A stretch of 64,000 nucleotides of DNA, taken from assembly GCF_056712565.1 (NCBI RefSeq), contig NZ_CM160072.1. One strand, written 5' to 3'. A program made the position numbers and the translations under genes. The notes below the pieces were generated by a model. That model was not told where the DNA came from and made no database searches. It was given only the letters and a program-made list of their open reading frames with translations. This document shows positions 7,892 through 19,924 of this stretch, piece by piece (the stretch's first letter is position 1; every line of letters begins with the position of its first letter).

Positions 7892-8317
7892 CTACTTAAT
7901 TGAGTCCAGTAACAAGTTACAGTTACTCTCATTGTAGAGAGAACGAGCAATTAGTGTTACCTGCTTTCCATTCATTCCCGGCTTATCCCATAACACAGCT
8001 TCTTGCGACGCCACAAATTCAGCATAATCAATTATGCGTTGTTCGTGATCTGGTTCCTCATAGCCAAAGTATGAGAGCGCATCGTTGTAAGCGTGGTAAG
8101 CTGCTTTCTGTAATATCTTGATATCGGCTGTAGGTACTTGCTCCGTGTAGCTAGGATCTAATTGTGTGCTACTGCCATAGAATGCACATGAAAGGTAAGA
8201 TATTGATTTCTGTTGAGCTTTAGTTCCTTTCTCATAGTTTTTAGCTGTTACCGCCTGAACAGGGACGCTAACAAAGCTTGCAACCAGAATTAAAATTAAT
8301 ACGTAAAAGCTTTTCAT
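7892..8317 (-). CDS. Secreted hypothetical protein (141 aa) with signal peptide; accessory cargo
   Basis: N-terminus MKSFYVLILILVASFVSVPVQA is signal-peptide-like; AT-rich; lies between dinI-like gene and cos. Confidence 0.6.
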   Translation of the reverse strand: MKSFYVLILILVASFVSVPVQAVTAKNYEKGTKAQQKSISYLSCAFYGSSTQLDPSYTEQVPTADIKILQKAAYHAYNDALSYFGYEEPDHEQRIIDYAEFVASQEAVLWDKPGMNGKQVTLIARSLYNESNCNLLLDSIK

Positions 8318-8615: not shown

Positions 8616-8659
8616 CGTAGATCATGCTCCTGCATGAAAACCACTACATAAAGCGGGCA

Positions 8660-8678
8660 GGCGTGGCGGGGATACGAG
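8660..8678. other. Putative cos (cohesive-end) site of the prophage
   Basis: GGCGTGGCGGGGATACGAG resembles the 19-nt P2/186 cohesive-end sequences as I recall them (GGCGTGGCGGGGA...); lies upstream of portal Q as expected. Confidence 0.45.
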
Positions 8679-8692
8679 CGCGCGCTTGCACC

Positions 8693-8721
8693 TTGATATT
8701 CACGGTTTGGTTAAGTATTGT
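8693..8721 (+). promoter_or_regulatory. Putative sigma70 promoter of the protease operon
   Basis: TTGATA - 17 bp - TATTGT, about 40 bp upstream of ATG 8762. Confidence 0.35.
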
Positions 8722-8761
8722 CTTAGTCAGAGTCCATAACATATTACAGAATGGAGTTGTT

Positions 8762-9409
8762 ATGATTGGTCCTGAATATGTCGTAGTTGTTGGCGTGCTT
8801 AATGCAGGTTTGGTTAGTTTTTTAGGAACAGGTTTTTTTATTTCTAAGGATAAAATAATTACTTCCCGCCATGTTATTAATGGGTTTTCTTCTAACTTAG
8901 TTATTTCTCCATCTAATATAAATAACTTTAATAGTTATCAGGATACAAGTGTTGATAAATTTCAATGTATTGGAGTTGATGTTATTGATGAAGATCCAAT
9001 AAAAGACTTATGTGTGTTAAAAATTAAAAATGCACCTGTTTATGAACCTTGCCTAAAAATTGCTACTCTTGACGATGTTAATGTCGGTGAAGATGTGGGT
9101 ATTTTAGGTTTCCCACATTGTAATGAAAATAGAAAAGTATTGACATTTCAAACGGCAAAAATAGGTGCAAAAGTTTTACTTTCAAGCAGTAATATTCAAT
9201 CTAAACATGCCGTTATAAATATCCAAACCAGACCTGGTCAATCGGGATCGATTGTATTTAATTTAAAAAATGACTCGGTAATAGGCGTCTTGGTTGGCGC
9301 TTATGCAAATAATTCTGGAGGTTCTGTTTTGGTTGGAGGTATTAATCCAGCTGAACTACATCAGACAACTTATGCGGTTTCTGCAGAATATGTTAAGGAT
9401 ATGTTATGA
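8762..9409 (+). CDS. Trypsin-fold (S1/chymotrypsin-like) serine protease, 215 aa; accessory cargo
   Basis: Catalytic triad contexts in order His (ITSRHVING), Asp (DLCVLKI), Ser (RPGQSGSIVF); GGAG RBS; very AT-rich; track ORF 5' extension to 8624 would cross cos. Confidence 0.8.
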   Translation: MIGPEYVVVVGVLNAGLVSFLGTGFFISKDKIITSRHVINGFSSNLVISPSNINNFNSYQDTSVDKFQCIGVDVIDEDPIKDLCVLKIKNAPVYEPCLKIATLDDVNVGEDVGILGFPHCNENRKVLTFQTAKIGAKVLLSSSNIQSKHAVINIQTRPGQSGSIVFNLKNDSVIGVLVGAYANNSGGSVLVGGINPAELHQTTYAVSAEYVKDML

Positions 9410-9852
9410 TTGCTATACCAAATGAAGATGCTGAGTCTTGGTTGTCCACTTTAAAAACGTATCAATCTTCATCTGTCAGGAATTTTCTCGAAAATGGCGA
9501 TGAAGAAAAGGCTCTTGAGCTATGGCTAACTGCATCTGGCCCAAGTTCAGTTGCTCAATTTGGCGGTGATAATTCAAAAATGCCGGGAAGAAAAGCGTTT
9601 GTTGAGCAGTTTAAATTAGAGTTTAAGGCTTTTGTATGTGGAGGTGATAAATATGCAGAGGAGAGGGAATGTTTAGGAGCACTGACTGGTGATGTTAAAA
9701 CATACTTTGTAGGGGTGATCTCTTCGGCAATTGCGGGTTCTTTGGGGGCAACAGCAACATTTATTGCTCCAGCTGTAGTAATTATGTTGATAGCTGTCTC
9801 AAAAATGGGAATTAATGCTTGGTGTTCATTAGAGACAACGACAGAATCTTAG
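9406..9852 (+). CDS. Small protein (148 aa) with C-terminal hydrophobic membrane anchor; partner of the protease
   Basis: ATGA start/stop overlap with protease gene (translational coupling); C-terminal segment YFVGVISSAIAGSLGATATFIAPAVVIMLIAVS is hydrophobic. Confidence 0.7.
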   Translation: MIAIPNEDAESWLSTLKTYQSSSVRNFLENGDEEKALELWLTASGPSSVAQFGGDNSKMPGRKAFVEQFKLEFKAFVCGGDKYAEERECLGALTGDVKTYFVGVISSAIAGSLGATATFIAPAVVIMLIAVSKMGINAWCSLETTTES

Positions 9853-9854
9853 GA

Positions 9855-9879
9855 AAACGCCCTTTTAGGGCGTTTTTTT
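9855..9879. terminator. Bidirectional rho-independent terminator between cargo operon and portal gene
   Basis: AAACGCCC-TTTTA-GGGCGTTT followed by T-run and preceded by A-run; overlaps Q stop codon. Confidence 0.7.
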
Positions 9880-10906
9880 ATAAATCATAATGCTGAAATC
9901 GGATAGTTTTCTCACCTAACCATTCATTAACTTCCATTATTCTTTTTTGGAGTGGAATTAGTTCATTTCTAACAAAAACCTTACTCGCCTTCTCCACATC
10001 CCCAAACCCTCCAACATTATTAGGCATTATCCCCATCATTTGTGGCGGCACACGATGCGCCGCCATCATGTCGTCCCGGCTCACGTTCTTGATATTCAGG
10101 AACTCATCCTTCGCCGCCACTTCTGACAACGGGATAATCTGAAGCCCGTCCTTTTTACCGTTAGGCGAGTACATAAACAGGTTACGGAAGTTACCAGGAC
10201 CTTTGGCACTTTTCATCGCGTTGCGGAGATTGTTCACATCCTCCTGATTCTGCGCGGCATCGGTCATATACATGATGAAGCCTGCATGGCTGCCGTTGAT
10301 GTAATACTTGCGGCGGAACAGCGTGGCGGACTTATTGAGCAGGGCTGACGGAATGGCAGAAAGATAGCCGGGCAGGCCGTAGATCTCCTGGTTGATGTCC
10401 GGTTCCATCAGATGAAAAATGCTGCCTTTCGTGAACTGATACGGCTGGGTTGTCATACCGTATTGCACAAACCAGTAGGTATCCAGGTCTAACCCGCGTC
10501 GGGTGTATTTTGCCAGCGCAGGATCAAGGGCGATAACTTCACCGAATCGGTTCGTGCGTTTCTCCAGGTAGGCGTTACCAAATACCAGATAGTCCTGCAC
10601 AAAACGCGAAAAAGCCTGCTGGCTGAGCAGCGGATGAGGGATATAGGTACTGGTCAGAATGTTGCACTTTACTGCAATCGGAGAACTGTGATGCACGGCG
10701 GCGCGGAAGGTGCGCGCCAGTCCGTCAAAGCTGACGGGCGGCTCATACCAGCGATCTGTCTGTACGCATTCCACATAGTCCAGCAGTTCACGGCGGTCCA
10801 GAACAGGAACGGGATCACCGAAGCTGAATGCTTCGGCTGAAGTCTGGCTTTTATGCTGGAGCTGGTTCGTCGACGCAGCGCGGTTCTTCTTACTCTTTCC
10901 CATCAA
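9878..10906 (-). CDS. Q: Portal protein gpQ
   Basis: 342-aa ORF; first leftward late gene; size and position as P2 Q. Confidence 0.9.
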   Translation of the reverse strand: MMGKSKKNRAASTNQLQHKSQTSAEAFSFGDPVPVLDRRELLDYVECVQTDRWYEPPVSFDGLARTFRAAVHHSSPIAVKCNILTSTYIPHPLLSQQAFSRFVQDYLVFGNAYLEKRTNRFGEVIALDPALAKYTRRGLDLDTYWFVQYGMTTQPYQFTKGSIFHLMEPDINQEIYGLPGYLSAIPSALLNKSATLFRRKYYINGSHAGFIMYMTDAAQNQEDVNNLRNAMKSAKGPGNFRNLFMYSPNGKKDGLQIIPLSEVAAKDEFLNIKNVSRDDMMAAHRVPPQMMGIMPNNVGGFGDVEKASKVFVRNELIPLQKRIMEVNEWLGEKTIRFQHYDL

Positions 10907-12630
10907 AAAATCTCCACAATATTACTGGTATTGGCGGACTCGCCCTGCAGTGGTTCGTTAAACAGTGCGTGCATTGTTGCCCAGGCCAGATCGGCGTGGC
11001 TGGCTTCTTCGCTGCGGCTGGCTTCATAGGTCGGGCGGTTGCCGCTGGCGGTGGTTGCGCGACGGATTGCCATGAATGACTGCGCAATGTCGGTGTGTCC
11101 GGCGTCAAACTCCAGACGGCGGTGGCTGATAATGTCGTAGGCCTTGAGTACCAGGGCGTTTTTAACGTTGGGGTTGTAGACAAACTCCCGGACGGCAGGA
11201 AAGAACGCTTTCACGTTCTCATAAACCCCGTGACCGACACCTGTCGAGTCGATGCCGATATATGTCACGTTGTACTGTTCGGTCAGTTTTTTGATGGCGT
11301 CCGCCTGGGCGCGGAAGTCCATCCCGCGCCACTGGTGACGCTCAAGAATACGGAACTTACCGCCCGGCACGGCTGGCGGAGCCACCACCACGCATCCGGC
11401 ACTGTCGCCGTTCTGCGTACCTTTTGCCGGGTCATAACCGATCCACACTTCGCGCCAGCCAAACGGGCGCAGCGCCAGTGCATGAAAGTCGGTCCAGACT
11501 TCCCAGCTGTCCACCATGCACGCCTGCAATTCGCTGAGCGGGAACACAGATGCGAGATCGTCAACGAACTCGCACATCAGCAGGTTCTGGTATTCGTCCG
11601 GGCTGTACTCCATGCGCAACTGGTCGAGGTCGAACAGGTTACAGCCGCCGCGTACCGCATCTTCCACGGTGACTATCTGGCGGTATTGCCCGTCTGCGCA
11701 CAGCAGGCCGGGGGCCAGATTGCTGTGGGACAGGTCGATGTCCACCTTATCGGCTTTGTTGCGCCCACGGTTGAACAACGCGCCGGACCAGAACGGATAA
11801 GCACTGTGGGTCAGGCTGGATGGCGTGGAAAAATAGGTCTGTCGCCATTTCTTGTGAATAGCCATACCGGAAGCCACTTTGCGCAGCTCCTGAAATTTTG
11901 GTATCCAGAAATATTCATCCAGATACAGGTTGCCGTGATAACTCTGGGCCGTGCGGGCATTGGTGCCTAGGAAGTAAAGCGTGGCCCCGTTAGGAAGCAC
12001 CATCGGATCGCCTTTCAGCTCCACCTCCACTTCTTTGGCGAAGTCGATGATGTACTGCTTAAAGACGTGGGCCTGTGCCTTACTGGCGGAAAGGAAAATC
12101 TGGTTACGCCCGGTAAGCAGAGCGTCAATCAGGGCTTCACGGGCAAAGTAAAAGGTTGCGCCGATCTGGCGTGACTTCAGCAGGTTGCGGATGCGGTTGT
12201 TTTTTCCGGCTTCCCACCAGTGGCGCTGGTAGTTGAACATGGAGGAATGGAAGATTTCTTCCAGCTTCTCAATCTGTTCATCGGTGAAAACGTTCTTTTC
12301 CGGCTGACGGCGCGGGCCTTTGTTGCGGTTGGCGACGTTAGGGTTTAAGTCGGCTTCGTTGCCGCCATTGTTAAACTTGCCGATCCGCGCATGGCGCTCC
12401 GACTGGCGCGCCAGCAGGTCAATCTCTTTGAAATCTTTCCCTTCTTTGTGCTCCTTCATAATGAGCTGGCAGTAGCGTGCGGCGGTGGTGAGCTGCATCT
12501 GATCCAGCGGCCCATAGTCACCCCACTTGTCGCGTTTTTTCCAGCTGTTCCAGTAAGTTTTTTCTAACGGAGCACGGCTCATGACAGTGAAAGCAAAGCG
12601 TTTTCGCATCGGGGTGGAAGGTGCCACCAC
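10903..12630 (-). CDS. P: Terminase large (ATPase) subunit gpP; true start probably downstream of 12630
   Basis: 575-aa ORF following Q; ATPase motifs; 5' end overlaps the divergent capsid ORF so start is uncertain. Confidence 0.85.
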   Translation of the reverse strand: MVAPSTPMRKRFAFTVMSRAPLEKTYWNSWKKRDKWGDYGPLDQMQLTTAARYCQLIMKEHKEGKDFKEIDLLARQSERHARIGKFNNGGNEADLNPNVANRNKGPRRQPEKNVFTDEQIEKLEEIFHSSMFNYQRHWWEAGKNNRIRNLLKSRQIGATFYFAREALIDALLTGRNQIFLSASKAQAHVFKQYIIDFAKEVEVELKGDPMVLPNGATLYFLGTNARTAQSYHGNLYLDEYFWIPKFQELRKVASGMAIHKKWRQTYFSTPSSLTHSAYPFWSGALFNRGRNKADKVDIDLSHSNLAPGLLCADGQYRQIVTVEDAVRGGCNLFDLDQLRMEYSPDEYQNLLMCEFVDDLASVFPLSELQACMVDSWEVWTDFHALALRPFGWREVWIGYDPAKGTQNGDSAGCVVVAPPAVPGGKFRILERHQWRGMDFRAQADAIKKLTEQYNVTYIGIDSTGVGHGVYENVKAFFPAVREFVYNPNVKNALVLKAYDIISHRRLEFDAGHTDIAQSFMAIRRATTASGNRPTYEASRSEEASHADLAWATMHALFNEPLQGESANTSNIVEIF

Positions 12631-13930
12631 CGACGGACGCGAAATCCAGCGTGAATGGCTGGAACAGATGGCAGCCAGCTACAACCCGGCGGTGTATACC
12701 GCGCTGATTAACCTTGAGCACATCAAGTCTTATATACCGGACAGCACCTTTAACCGCTACGGCAAGGTGACGGCGCTGTTTGCTGAAGAAATCACGGAAG
12801 GTCCGCTGGCAGGCAAGATGGCGCTGTATGCCGACGTTGAGCCAACGGAGTCCCTGGTGGAACTGGTGAAAAAAGGCCAGAAATTATTCACCTCTATGGA
12901 AGTCAGCCCGAAGTTCGCTGATACGGGCAAAGCCTACCTGGTCGGCCTGGCTGCCACTGATGACCCTGCCAGTCTGGGTACGGAAATGCTGACATTCAGC
13001 GCCAGTGCAGCCCATAACCCGCTGGCAAACCGCAAGCAGAATCCTGCCATGACTGAGCAGTCCGGTCAGCTGCTGGGGCTGGGTGTTGGCAGCACCATTG
13101 CCGGAACCACTGACACCACCGCAAAAGAGCGTGAACCTGTCGATCCGACGCTGATGGTCGATGTGGAATATAAATGCGAGCAGACCAACTTTGACACGGT
13201 GCTGACCTACGCGAAGCTGGACCTGTGGGCGAAGTTTCAGGATTTCCAGGTGCGTATCCGTGACGCCATCGTGAAACGTCAGGCACTGGACCGCATCATG
13301 ATCGGCTTTAACGGCGTGAAGCGTGCGAAAACCTCCAACCGTAGTGAAAACCCGCTGCTGCAGGATGTGAACAAAGGCTGGCTGCAGAAAATCCGTGAGG
13401 ATGCACCGGATCACGTCATGGGCAGCACCACCACGGGCGGCGAAACCACACCGGGTGCGGTGAAAGTCGGTAAAGGGGGCGAATATGCCAACTTGGACGC
13501 TGTGGTGATGGATGCGGTCAATGAGCTTATCGACGTGGTCTACCAGGACGATGACGATCTGGTGGTGATTTGCGGTCGTGAACTGCTGTCTGACAAGTAT
13601 TTCCCGCTGGTCAACAAAGAGCAGGAAAACAGTGAAAAATTGGCAGCCGATATGATTATCAGTCAGAAACGCATGGGCGGTCTGCAGGCCGTGCGTGCGC
13701 CGTTCTTCCCGCCGAATGCGCTGCTGATCACCCGTCTGGATAACCTGTCCATCTACTGGCAGGAAGACACCCGCCGCCGTTCAGTTATCGACAACCCGAA
13801 ACGTGACCGGATTGAAAACTTTGAATCCGTTAACGAAGCCTATGTGGTTGAGGACTACCGCTGCGCCGCACTGGTGGAAAACATCCAGATTGGTGATTTC
13901 AGCGCCGCCGCAGCCGAAACCGGAGCGTAA
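12581..13930 (+). CDS. Capsid protein with N-terminal gpO-like scaffold/protease region and C-terminal gpN-like major-capsid region in one 449-aa ORF
   Basis: N-terminus FRIGVEGATTDGR resembles P2 gpO start as I recall it; C-terminal half LITRLDNLSIYWQE...DNPKRDRIENFES...VVEDY resembles P2 gpN; single uninterrupted frame. Confidence 0.75.
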   Translation: MTVKAKRFRIGVEGATTDGREIQREWLEQMAASYNPAVYTALINLEHIKSYIPDSTFNRYGKVTALFAEEITEGPLAGKMALYADVEPTESLVELVKKGQKLFTSMEVSPKFADTGKAYLVGLAATDDPASLGTEMLTFSASAAHNPLANRKQNPAMTEQSGQLLGLGVGSTIAGTTDTTAKEREPVDPTLMVDVEYKCEQTNFDTVLTYAKLDLWAKFQDFQVRIRDAIVKRQALDRIMIGFNGVKRAKTSNRSENPLLQDVNKGWLQKIREDAPDHVMGSTTTGGETTPGAVKVGKGGEYANLDAVVMDAVNELIDVVYQDDDDLVVICGRELLSDKYFPLVNKEQENSEKLAADMIISQKRMGGLQAVRAPFFPPNALLITRLDNLSIYWQEDTRRRSVIDNPKRDRIENFESVNEAYVVEDYRCAALVENIQIGDFSAAAAETGA

Positions 13931-17965: not shown

Positions 17966-19924
17966 ATGATAGTAGGGATTTTTTTAAGGTATTTTAAAAC
18001 ATACAACGGAAATCATTACATACCGTTATCTTCTGGAAGTCAGTTTTGTGGAATTGTTGGTAACAATGGAATTGGCAAAAGTTCTGTTCTTGAGGCTTTA
18101 GATTCGTTTATTAATAACAAACCATGGAATATTAATTCTTCATTTAAAAGAACCTCCAGTGACAGACCTTCTCCACATATTGTTCCTTTATATCTTATAA
18201 AGCGAGAGGAATTACATGAAGATCATCATGCTAAAGCTGAAATCTTAACGCAATTAGTATTAGAATATAGCAATAGTAATGCTGATGTTACATTGACGCC
18301 AACAACACGAAATATAATTAATACGTTTTTTGAACATATTAACAAATTAAAAAGAAATTTAAATCTCCAAGATTATTTTTTGATCCCTCTGGGTGTCGAG
18401 AAAGATGGTGATGTAAGTATTTCGATTCTTAATGGGAAGAGTTTATGTCGACTTTTGGAGGTTGATAATCCCGATAATAAAGTTTCGAGCGAGTTGCTTA
18501 GTAAGCACTTTGGGTATTTATTACATCATGTCCGCCATAAGTATGAATATATATATATTCCAAAGGATATAGACTCTGAATCGTTTACGAAGCTAGAAAC
18601 AAGTGAAGTACAAAAGTTGATGGGTGAGTCTTTAGAGCAGATAATTAAAGATAGAATATCTGATAGAACCATAAGTCAAATCAATACAGGGCTTGCCAAA
18701 TTTCTGGATGGTGTTGAAGAGGAGCTTGAAGAATATGGTTATAGAACATCTGGCGAGAGACAATCGCGATTAAAAAAGAAAGATGTTTATAATTTGATTA
18801 TCGAAGCATTCTTCAAAGTTAGGAAATTAAATAAAAAGCAGAATTCAGGTTGGATTGAAATTAGCTCGCTAAGTTCAGGGGAGAAGCAACGTGCAATAAT
18901 GGATATTGCATATGGGTTTCTTACCAATCATAGAGAAAATGGCGATAATCTGATTATTGGAATTGATGAGCCAGAATGTTCTCTTCATATGTCTGCATGT
19001 TTTGAACAATTTGAAAAGCTCTATTCTATTAGTGGTATATGTGAACAATTAATATTTACTTCACATTGGTATGGCTATCTTCCAACCGTCGAAAATGGAT
19101 GTACCACAACTATCCTTAAAACAGATTCAACTCATCATTTTGAATTATATGATCTTGCCAGTTATAGAGAAGAAGTCAGGAAGAAAGTAAAAACCTCTTC
19201 CCCGGGTATGCCATTTGATATAAAAATAAAAAGTGTAAATGACCTTATACAATCCATAATATCTAGCTGTTTGGCTGAGAAACCTTACAATTGGTTGATT
19301 TGTGAGGGTACTACAGAAAAAATATATCTTTCGCATTATCTAAAGGACTTGGTAGAAAATAAAAGGCTAAGGATTGTGCCTGTAGGGGGAGCTAGTGAAG
19401 TTAAAAAAATATTTAAGCATTTAGAAGCTTCTTATGAAGAGTTCAAAAAAGACCTCAAAGGAAAAGTGTTCTTACTAACCGATACAGATTCAGAGTTGGT
19501 GTCATATGATACCCCAGTTATGCCGCATGTTGTTTGTAAGCGAATTGTTAGTGTAGGTGATTCAGTGAAGTTGGTTGATATTTCTTCCAATCCAGTTTCT
19601 CCTGCAACAGAAATAGAGGATTGTCTTAATCCTGTATCGTTTATAGAGGCTTTAACATCATTTTCTTCACGTTTTCCTGAGCTTCAGGCATTGCTGCCTA
19701 ATAGTAATGTTATGATAGATGAAAGACATTCATCGTTTGCTGCGATGGATTTGTCACCCAAGAACAAAAAAACGCTTGATGCTTTTTTTGACCGTGAAGG
19801 AATTAAGTTTGATTTTTCAAAGGAATATATTTCAATCTGTGAGCGAAATGAGCGGAAAAGGCCAGAGTGGATTGCCAAAATTGAAAATTTTTTTATAAGT
19901 GATAAACCTGTAAAGTTTAATTGA
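17966..19924 (+). CDS. OLD-family ATP-dependent nuclease (ABC ATPase + TOPRIM), 652 aa; accessory defence-type cargo
   Basis: Walker A GNNGIGKSS, ABC signature LSSGEKQ, Walker B LIIGIDEPE, H-loop FTSHW; C-terminal TOPRIM-like WLICEGTTE and LLTDTDSE; same motif layout as host YbjD in this window; AT-rich. Confidence 0.85.
   Translation: MIVGIFLRYFKTYNGNHYIPLSSGSQFCGIVGNNGIGKSSVLEALDSFINNKPWNINSSFKRTSSDRPSPHIVPLYLIKREELHEDHHAKAEILTQLVLEYSNSNADVTLTPTTRNIINTFFEHINKLKRNLNLQDYFLIPLGVEKDGDVSISILNGKSLCRLLEVDNPDNKVSSELLSKHFGYLLHHVRHKYEYIYIPKDIDSESFTKLETSEVQKLMGESLEQIIKDRISDRTISQINTGLAKFLDGVEEELEEYGYRTSGERQSRLKKKDVYNLIIEAFFKVRKLNKKQNSGWIEISSLSSGEKQRAIMDIAYGFLTNHRENGDNLIIGIDEPECSLHMSACFEQFEKLYSISGICEQLIFTSHWYGYLPTVENGCTTTILKTDSTHHFELYDLASYREEVRKKVKTSSPGMPFDIKIKSVNDLIQSIISSCLAEKPYNWLICEGTTEKIYLSHYLKDLVENKRLRIVPVGGASEVKKIFKHLEASYEEFKKDLKGKVFLLTDTDSELVSYDTPVMPHVVCKRIVSVGDSVKLVDISSNPVSPATEIEDCLNPVSFIEALTSFSSRFPELQALLPNSNVMIDERHSSFAAMDLSPKNKKTLDAFFDREGIKFDFSKEYISICERNERKRPEWIAKIENFFISDKPVKFN

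Follow-up and report, generated by a model that had tools for sequence, protein, structure and literature searches.

The 64,000-nucleotide stretch of contig NZ_CM160072.1 (NCBI RefSeq assembly GCF_056712565.1), referred to below as the window, carries two small genes next to the portal gene of a P2/186-like prophage. The first encodes a serine protease and the second a helical partner protein, and the two together are a copy of the candidate defence module PDC-M35. As a sequence-only reading of this DNA had stated, they are coupled: both lie on the + strand and overlap by 4 nucleotides (ATGA at 9406-9409). The elements discussed first are the following.

8762..9409, + strand: gene 1, S1 (trypsin-fold) serine protease PDC-M35A, 215 amino acids (PADLOC, Pfam, RefSeq WP_001350593.1)
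8870-8872, 9005-9007 and 9242-9244, + strand: codons of the catalytic triad of gene 1, His37, Asp82 and Ser161, respectively
9406..9852, + strand: gene 2, all-helical partner PDC-M35B, 148 amino acids (PADLOC, AlphaFold2, RefSeq WP_000560513.1)
9535..9582, + strand: exposed low-confidence loop, partner residues 44-59, with F52-G53-G54; proposed protease-contact or cleavage site
9697..9807, + strand: hydrophobic helical hairpin, partner residues 98-134 (helices 98-113 and 117-134, turn at G114); proposed to be membrane-active

In RefSeq, the identical locus of E. coli SF-468 has the same 215- and 148-residue coding sequences, under the names 'S1 family peptidase' and 'hypothetical protein'. A longer in-frame open reading frame (ORF) starting at 8624, which crosses the cos region, was considered for gene 1 and rejected, because the homologues are uniformly about 215 residues long and RefSeq has the 215-residue coding sequence.

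Gene 1 matched the PDC-M35A model of PADLOC-DB v2 with an expectation value (E) of 4.5e-94, aligning residues 5-215 to model positions 6-216 of 216. Gene 2 matched PDC-M35B with E = 4.3e-58 (residues 3-145 on positions 6-145 of 148). The two matches are adjacent, on the same strand and with A first, which is the arrangement that defines PDC-M35. The PDCs are 145 phage defence candidates, proposed from their embedding in BREX, DISARM and type I restriction-modification systems ('guilt-by-embedding'); PDC-M35 is the cassette CAS_00131 (FAM_02427>>FAM_02508), with the entry 'Assign as candidate PDC-M35' (Payne et al. 2024, bioRxiv 10.1101/2024.01.29.577857). Both accessions, WP_001350593 (Trypsin_2/Trypsin) and WP_000560513, are also tabulated at the P2 gpA-gpQ hotspot (Rousset et al. 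2022, PMC9122126, Table S5A). Because of these full-length matches and this listing, the pair is not undescribed, as the sequence-only reading, which could connect it to no named system, had supposed. Homology to an already named system was one of the findings that would have overturned that reading; it was found in a weak form, as PDC-M35 is the name of a candidate and not of a validated system. The pair is already known as a named, catalogued candidate and is not a new discovery. The new elements here are its obligate, co-diverging pairing, its mobile contexts including an integron cassette, the orphan fold of the partner and the predicted complex.

Papers on DefensePredictor, domain-centric discovery, modularity networks and integrons were checked, and none contained a tested equivalent of the pair; NCBIfam (June 2026) had no antiphage model or name for either protein. 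A 'Peptidase + TM' construct (pFR104) cloned in the hotspot survey was considered as an earlier test of the pair and rejected, because the protein sequences printed for it are those of an unrelated HExxH peptidase and of a protein that has one transmembrane (TM) segment. We take this peptidase to be M78/ImmA-like. The pFR104 construct is outside the three P2 systems reported as active, and no record of cloning or testing of the present pair was found for that study (Rousset et al. 2022, PMC9122126).

The protease is a compact, single-domain enzyme. The Pfam search placed Trypsin_2 at residues 22-176 (E = 1.6e-15) and returned only trypsin families (Trypsin_2, Trypsin), with no further domain and no PDZ. 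His37, Asp82 and Ser161 were each at least 95% conserved among 137 family members. The canonical order of the triad and the lack of a PDZ or any other domain, both read earlier from the sequence, were thus borne out. The nearest solved structures were staphylococcal SplE, the V8 glutamyl endopeptidase and MarP. The NCBIfam models gave weak scores, with E = 9.6e-08 for MarP, far under the model cutoff, and E = 0.036 for HtrA (13 bits against a cutoff of 800). The protease has no signal peptide, and its hydrophobic N-terminus aligns to the first beta-strands of SplE; it is probably cytoplasmic. As the partner is likewise devoid of a signal peptide, a secreted virulence role is unlikely for the pair. 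Within PADLOC, the closest defence relatives of the protease are effector domains of retron XI, LmuA, HamA and Avs1b, and the best other defence family for its domain is retron XI (E = 2.6e-17).

The partner gave no sequence match in Pfam, NCBIfam or the PDB. Its AlphaFold2 model, built from a 123-sequence alignment, is all-helical, with a predicted local distance difference test (pLDDT) of 88 and a predicted template modelling score (pTM) of 0.83. Three short N-terminal helices are followed by the loop at 44-59, two amphipathic helices, the hydrophobic hairpin and a short terminal helix. A structure search with this model returned relatives from the partner's own family alone and none beyond it. 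Near-invariant residues are L16, Q20, W40, G53, E72, C78, Y83, G114, P122 and C140. In the loop, the 123 partner sequences show at least 80% conservation of F52, at least 90% of G53 and 60-80% of G54. The hairpin is bordered by Lys98 and Lys134, and residues 99-133 carry no charge; the highest 19-residue Kyte-Doolittle mean is 2.32. The segment had been described as a tail anchor: the C-terminal stretch is indeed hydrophobic, but AlphaFold2 predicts a two-helix hairpin in place of a single span. Cys78 (9637-9639) and Cys140 (9823-9825) are conserved at 95% or more in the same 123 diverse sequences. The former belongs to the soluble part and the latter, in the motif NAWC, comes right after the hairpin; the two could serve in a disulfide, in metal binding or in lipidation.

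The 1.2-kb locus was found in 12 of the 5,426 complete E. coli genomes, always beside the portal gene and with at least 99.7% identity. The adjacent P2-type terminase/scaffold (P/O) region was present in about 1,088 of them. The pair is consequently rare cargo and not core, an outcome that agrees with the accessory status proposed for it before this survey of P2-like prophages was run. About 99% of the genomes with P2-type packaging genes lack it, so it is dispensable for the phage life cycle. The E. coli strains that carry it are of extraintestinal, avian and canine origin, and IMG/VR contained only two close relatives of the pair. Outside E. coli the families are broad. The protease keeps about 50% identity and about 215 residues across distant phyla, and the partner family has 992 cluster representatives at the 50% level, nearly all of 140-160 residues. 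Hosts were found in Proteobacteria, Bacteroidota, Bacillota, Actinomycetota, Spirochaetota, Fibrobacterota and Cyanobacteriota.

The two genes are kept together throughout this range. Of the 27 loci fetched, 26 have the protease gene directly before the partner gene, among them all 12 that were found through the partner alone, and in 17 of 19 non-redundant pairs the stop codon of the first gene overlaps the start codon of the second. A Mantel test on the two sets of protein distances gave a correlation of r = 0.855, a value reached in none of 5000 permutations; the mean pairwise distance is 0.42 for the protease and 0.54 for the partner. Across many phyla the two genes form an obligate unit and diverge together. 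Six longer partner homologues (P0261, P0221, P0229, P0272, P0273 and P0251) were checked and contained no fused protease sequence. In the 27th locus, from Psychromonas sp. SA13A (L027, 9383-10300), protease and partner form a single ORF. This ORF joins the protease, minus its last ~9 residues, to the partner from about residue 44, just before the FGG loop, to its end. This one case may be a natural fusion, and would then support physical coupling of the two proteins, or else a pseudogene that arose by deletion.

The genomic neighbourhoods are rich in defence and mobility genes. On a C. perfringens chromosome (L002, 4599-14244) a type I restriction-modification operon contains the pair, with hsdM/hsdS on one side and hsdR on the other; SMODS and SLATT_4 genes and part of an integrase gene are there as well. 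On C. perfringens plasmids (L028, 2007-5728, a 48-kb plasmid) it directly follows an AAA ATPase and an HNH endonuclease (Septu-like) and is bordered by an Rpn nuclease and a recombinase. It adjoins a PtuA-like ATPase in Porphyromonas, a Drt4/Drt3b-like reverse transcriptase in Rikenellaceae, a DUF499 antiphage-associated protein in Gelidibacter and a MobB relaxase in Muribaculaceae. The Aeromonas copy is inserted, on the opposite strand, into the tail gene region of a Mu-like prophage, and Klebsiella P2-like prophages carry the pair at the same cos-Q position, once with a reverse transcriptase. In Shewanella fodinae (L017, 9242-10427), attC-like repeats bracket the pair (GCTTAAC...GTTAGC at 9242-9329 and GCTAAC from 10412), so that the two genes seem to move together as a single integron cassette; an integron integrase (TIGR02249, 435 bits) is encoded 1.6 kb away. 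These contexts give good guilt-by-association support for defence, independent of the embedding argument by which PDC-M35 was proposed, and it is reasonable to read them in this way as association. The variety of hosts and contexts, from Clostridium to Bacteroidota and marine bacteria and from a restriction-modification operon to an integron, disfavours a function tied to one host or one phage.

To model the complex, AlphaFold2 was run on the protease and the partner fused through a 30-residue Gly/Ser linker, with an alignment of 16 true pairs plus unpaired homologues of each half. The model had a pTM of 0.88 over 393 residues, which by our estimate is well above the value for independently placed domains of 215 and 148 residues. 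The pLDDT of the partner loop 44-59 rose from ~60 in the monomer to ~79 in the fused model, and the loop gained a beta-bridge at V49-A50, just before the conserved F52-G53-G54. On the strength of the high pTM and the ordered loop, we favour a protease-partner complex with the loop bound on the protease.

On these grounds we tentatively favour the following reading over the others, with a confidence somewhat short of even: this PDC-M35 copy is mobile prophage cargo that most likely protects the lysogen from other phages by an abortive-infection-type mechanism, in which loop cleavage arms a membrane effector. The cytoplasmic S1 protease and its small helical partner would form a complex, and an infection cue would let the protease cut the exposed conserved loop (...AQFGG...). 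The cut would part the N-terminal three-helix cap from the C-terminal module, and the hydrophobic hairpin of the freed module might then disrupt the inner membrane and halt phage production. We infer the defence function, the loop cleavage, the membrane damage and the trigger. There is a precedent for this logic in a trypsin-like protease that cuts the inhibitory loops of a toxic effector (bioRxiv 10.1101/2025.09.03.673762).

Several observations weigh against this reading. The PDCs are predictions that their authors themselves call untested (Payne et al. 2024, bioRxiv 10.1101/2024.01.29.577857), and our literature search found no paper mentioning or testing PDC-M35 or either accession. The phage genomes of INPHARED gave no DNA or protein match to the pair. 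Four of the neighbourhoods (L018, L021, L023 and L024) appear to consist of ordinary housekeeping genes. No sensor domain is recognisable in either protein, and no trigger is evident. The FGG motif is missing in some members of the partner family, and the hydrophobic stretch appears borderline for spontaneous membrane insertion (Hessa sum +0.31 kcal/mol). The loop-active-site contact was read from changes in model confidence and secondary structure, and the fused construct with its concatenated alignment may have pushed AlphaFold2 towards a complex.

A more far-reaching form of the favoured reading would make PDC-M35 a minimal, sensor-less proteolytic switch. The protease would hold a partner of new fold, cut its FGG loop on infection and thereby free a membrane-collapsing hairpin toxin. 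This would be a gasdermin-like suicide logic that evolved independently and spread over most bacterial phyla on prophages, plasmids and integron cassettes. In this full form the proposal is doubtful.

The roles of the two proteins might also be reversed, with the protease as effector and the partner as its membrane anchor or regulator, the loop occupying the active site as a pseudo-substrate. Infection would then free or activate the protease at the inner membrane to cut host or incoming phage proteins, in a manner resembling a Lit-type shut-off or superinfection exclusion at DNA entry. The predicted complex and the ordering of the loop suit an inhibitor as well as a substrate, and the defence-rich contexts count equally for this arrangement. 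The protease is the more conserved of the two proteins, and related trypsin-like domains are the effectors in retron XI, Lamassu and Avs1b. A mere anchor, however, needs neither the conserved G114/P122 pattern of the hairpin nor Cys78 and Cys140, the data point to no target, and the support that structure modelling may lend to it is as limited as for arming by cleavage. We consider a protease effector unlikely, though it survives better than the two remaining alternatives, both of which were judged less likely.

In the first of these, the pair would be a toxin-antitoxin or addiction module that stabilises its carrier element. The co-translated protease would degrade or restrain a membrane toxin, and any defence would be incidental, arising for instance from phage-induced shut-off. 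Toxin-antitoxin-like modules are frequent in integron arrays and P2 hotspots, and the pair itself is found on plasmids, integron cassettes and prophages, tightly coupled and with the putative neutraliser gene first. Antitoxins are normally labile and fast-evolving, yet here the protease is the more conserved protein; the domain searches of both proteins found no DNA-binding or autoregulatory domain, and the Psychromonas ORF, if functional, fits poorly with toxin-antitoxin stoichiometry. Toxin-antitoxin logic has been raised for other systems of the hotspot (Rousset et al. 2022, PMC9122126), and for PDC-M35 we regard it as improbable. Equally improbable is a non-defence accessory (a factor for the fitness or virulence of the lysogen, or one that modulates prophage lysis/lysogeny), for which the cytolethal distending toxin and partition systems also held by P2 hotspots (Rousset et al. 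2022, PMC9122126), the isolation sources of the E. coli carriers and the housekeeping neighbours of some loci speak, and against which stand the missing signal peptides, the range of hosts and contexts and the rarity of the pair among genomes with P2-type packaging genes.

The features that surround the pair in the window are listed here.

About 8649-8667, unstranded: cos-like core GGCGTGGCGGGGATACGAG, just upstream of the pair, which places the pair between cos and Q
8693..8721, + strand: promoter-like element TTGATA-17-TATTGT (9/12 matches), candidate operon promoter
8753-8756, + strand: ribosome-binding site GGAG, 5 nucleotides before the gene 1 ATG and kept in relatives
9850..9880, unstranded: hairpin of a bidirectional intrinsic terminator, separating gene 2 from the convergently transcribed portal gene Q, from RNA folding
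9878..10906, - strand: portal gene Q, which follows the pair, with the terminase beyond

The flanks are of P2/186 type. On the A side they comprise gene A (phrog_91), a small phrog_698 protein, DinI and a 141-residue protein on the opposite strand. The core at 8649-8667 is taken to be a P2-family cos site; it is invariant in the Klebsiella and IMG/VR relatives. It is also similar to cos-flanking sequences printed in Table S2 of Rousset et al. 2022 (PMC9122126). The pair occupies the gpA-cos-gpQ accessory hotspot of a P2/186-like prophage, in agreement with the placement proposed before and with the hotspot described by Rousset et al. 2022 (PMC9122126). The 141-residue ORF (7892-8317, - strand), between DinI and cos in the same hotspot, corresponds to phrog_7437 and RefSeq WP_000834899 and has a signal-peptide-like N-terminus. 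It gave no match in PADLOC, and it is placed outside the module because it is not conserved beside the pair in Klebsiella or other hosts.

The sequence-only reading had also pointed to an AT-rich island with its own promoter and a strong bidirectional terminator. The island was evident, with a GC fraction of 0.29-0.39 over 8750-9650 against 0.51-0.58 in gene A and the Q/P genes. The promoter held in part: the hexamers are present at 8693-8721, but promoter-like sites in the region are not enriched (7 found vs 7.2 in shuffled sequence). In the relatives the -35 hexamer is invariant and the -10 hexamer is kept in part. The terminator was not listed by a pattern scanner and was confirmed by folding. 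The hairpin reached -17.5 kcal/mol (z -5.2) on the + strand, followed by a U-run, and -13.7 kcal/mol (z -3.9) on the - strand.

The remainder of the prophage was compared with the otherwise identical one of SF-468. Two segments are gone from the window. The 231 bp absent at 12548/12549 comprise the 5' end of the gene for the terminase ATPase together with the spacer between P and O, and the loss of 554 bp at about 13046-13049 has joined the genes for the scaffold (gpO) and the major capsid protein (gpN) into one in-frame chimeric ORF of 449 residues (12581..13930). Neither deletion is shared by the 8 best-scoring of 1,093 matching records, all of which align in three pieces. From its sequence, this prophage copy looks unable to package, with the cargo pair intact. 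Separately, an AAA ATPase of 652 residues is encoded at 17966-19924 (+ strand), after the virion-morphogenesis gene, at a second variable site of P2-like phages. Its best PADLOC matches are AriA (of PARIS, E = 1e-21) and Old (E = 2.4e-11), and it is probably a second defence-type cargo of the same prophage.

If PDC-M35 defends its hosts, it would add to the known repertoire a very small and very widespread immune module, with about 1,000 partner clusters at 50% identity. It would also bear on how minimal systems detect infection, as it combines an orphan effector fold with no obvious sensor. The E. coli copy is convenient for such work: it spans ~1.2 kb, has a putative promoter and a terminator of its own, and comes from a genetically tractable host. 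For annotation, the pair is better labelled 'PDC-M35 candidate' than 'novel'. The added value of this analysis lies in the breadth of the family, the strict pairing, the integron and prophage contexts, the orphan partner fold and a testable cleavage hypothesis.

Among known systems, PDC-M35 has the same two proteins in the same order from end to end; its name is attached to a prediction, with no phenotype or mechanism. The P2 hotspot catalogue (PMC9122126) has the same accessions at the same hotspot, and the old/tin locus is that hotspot. Neither protein matches the PADLOC model of Old, so the likeness to P2 old is one of shared position. SplE/SplB, V8 and MarP have in common with our protease the S1 fold, the compact size and the order of catalytic residues, but they are secreted or periplasmic, with signal or membrane segments, whereas the protease here has no signal peptide and has a dedicated partner. 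HtrA/DegP (S1C) differ by their PDZ domains and their signal peptide or anchor. Retron XI is encoded by one gene, whose product is a fusion of reverse transcriptase and protease (Mestre et al. 2020, PMC7736814); the protease here, in contrast, comprises 215 residues with Trypsin_2 alone and no fused reverse transcriptase. In the A-Q gap, where not every small ORF was scanned, no ORF was annotated as or matched a reverse transcriptase.

Two further parallels lie in the proposed logic. Bacterial gasdermins, according to Johnson et al. 2022, reportedly have an adjacent protease that arms a membrane-permeabilising protein by cleavage, resulting in abortive infection. The arming by cleavage proposed for PDC-M35 would be alike, with a partner that does not have the gasdermin fold. 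In the trypsin-metallo-beta-lactamase module of Hachiman, Argonaute and AVAST systems, the protease and an adjacent effector evolve together, and the effector becomes active when the protease cuts its inhibitory loops (bioRxiv 10.1101/2025.09.03.673762). Our protease is weakly to moderately similar to the protease domains of HamA, Avs1b and LmuA. No metallo-beta-lactamase nuclease was found at our locus: the partner is helical, and the other A-Q ORFs scanned or annotated are DinI, phrog_698 and phrog_7437. The effector in that module is a DNase of the metallo-beta-lactamase fold and its protease is fused to a helicase-type sensor, whereas PDC-M35 combines a hydrophobic-hairpin protein with a stand-alone protease.

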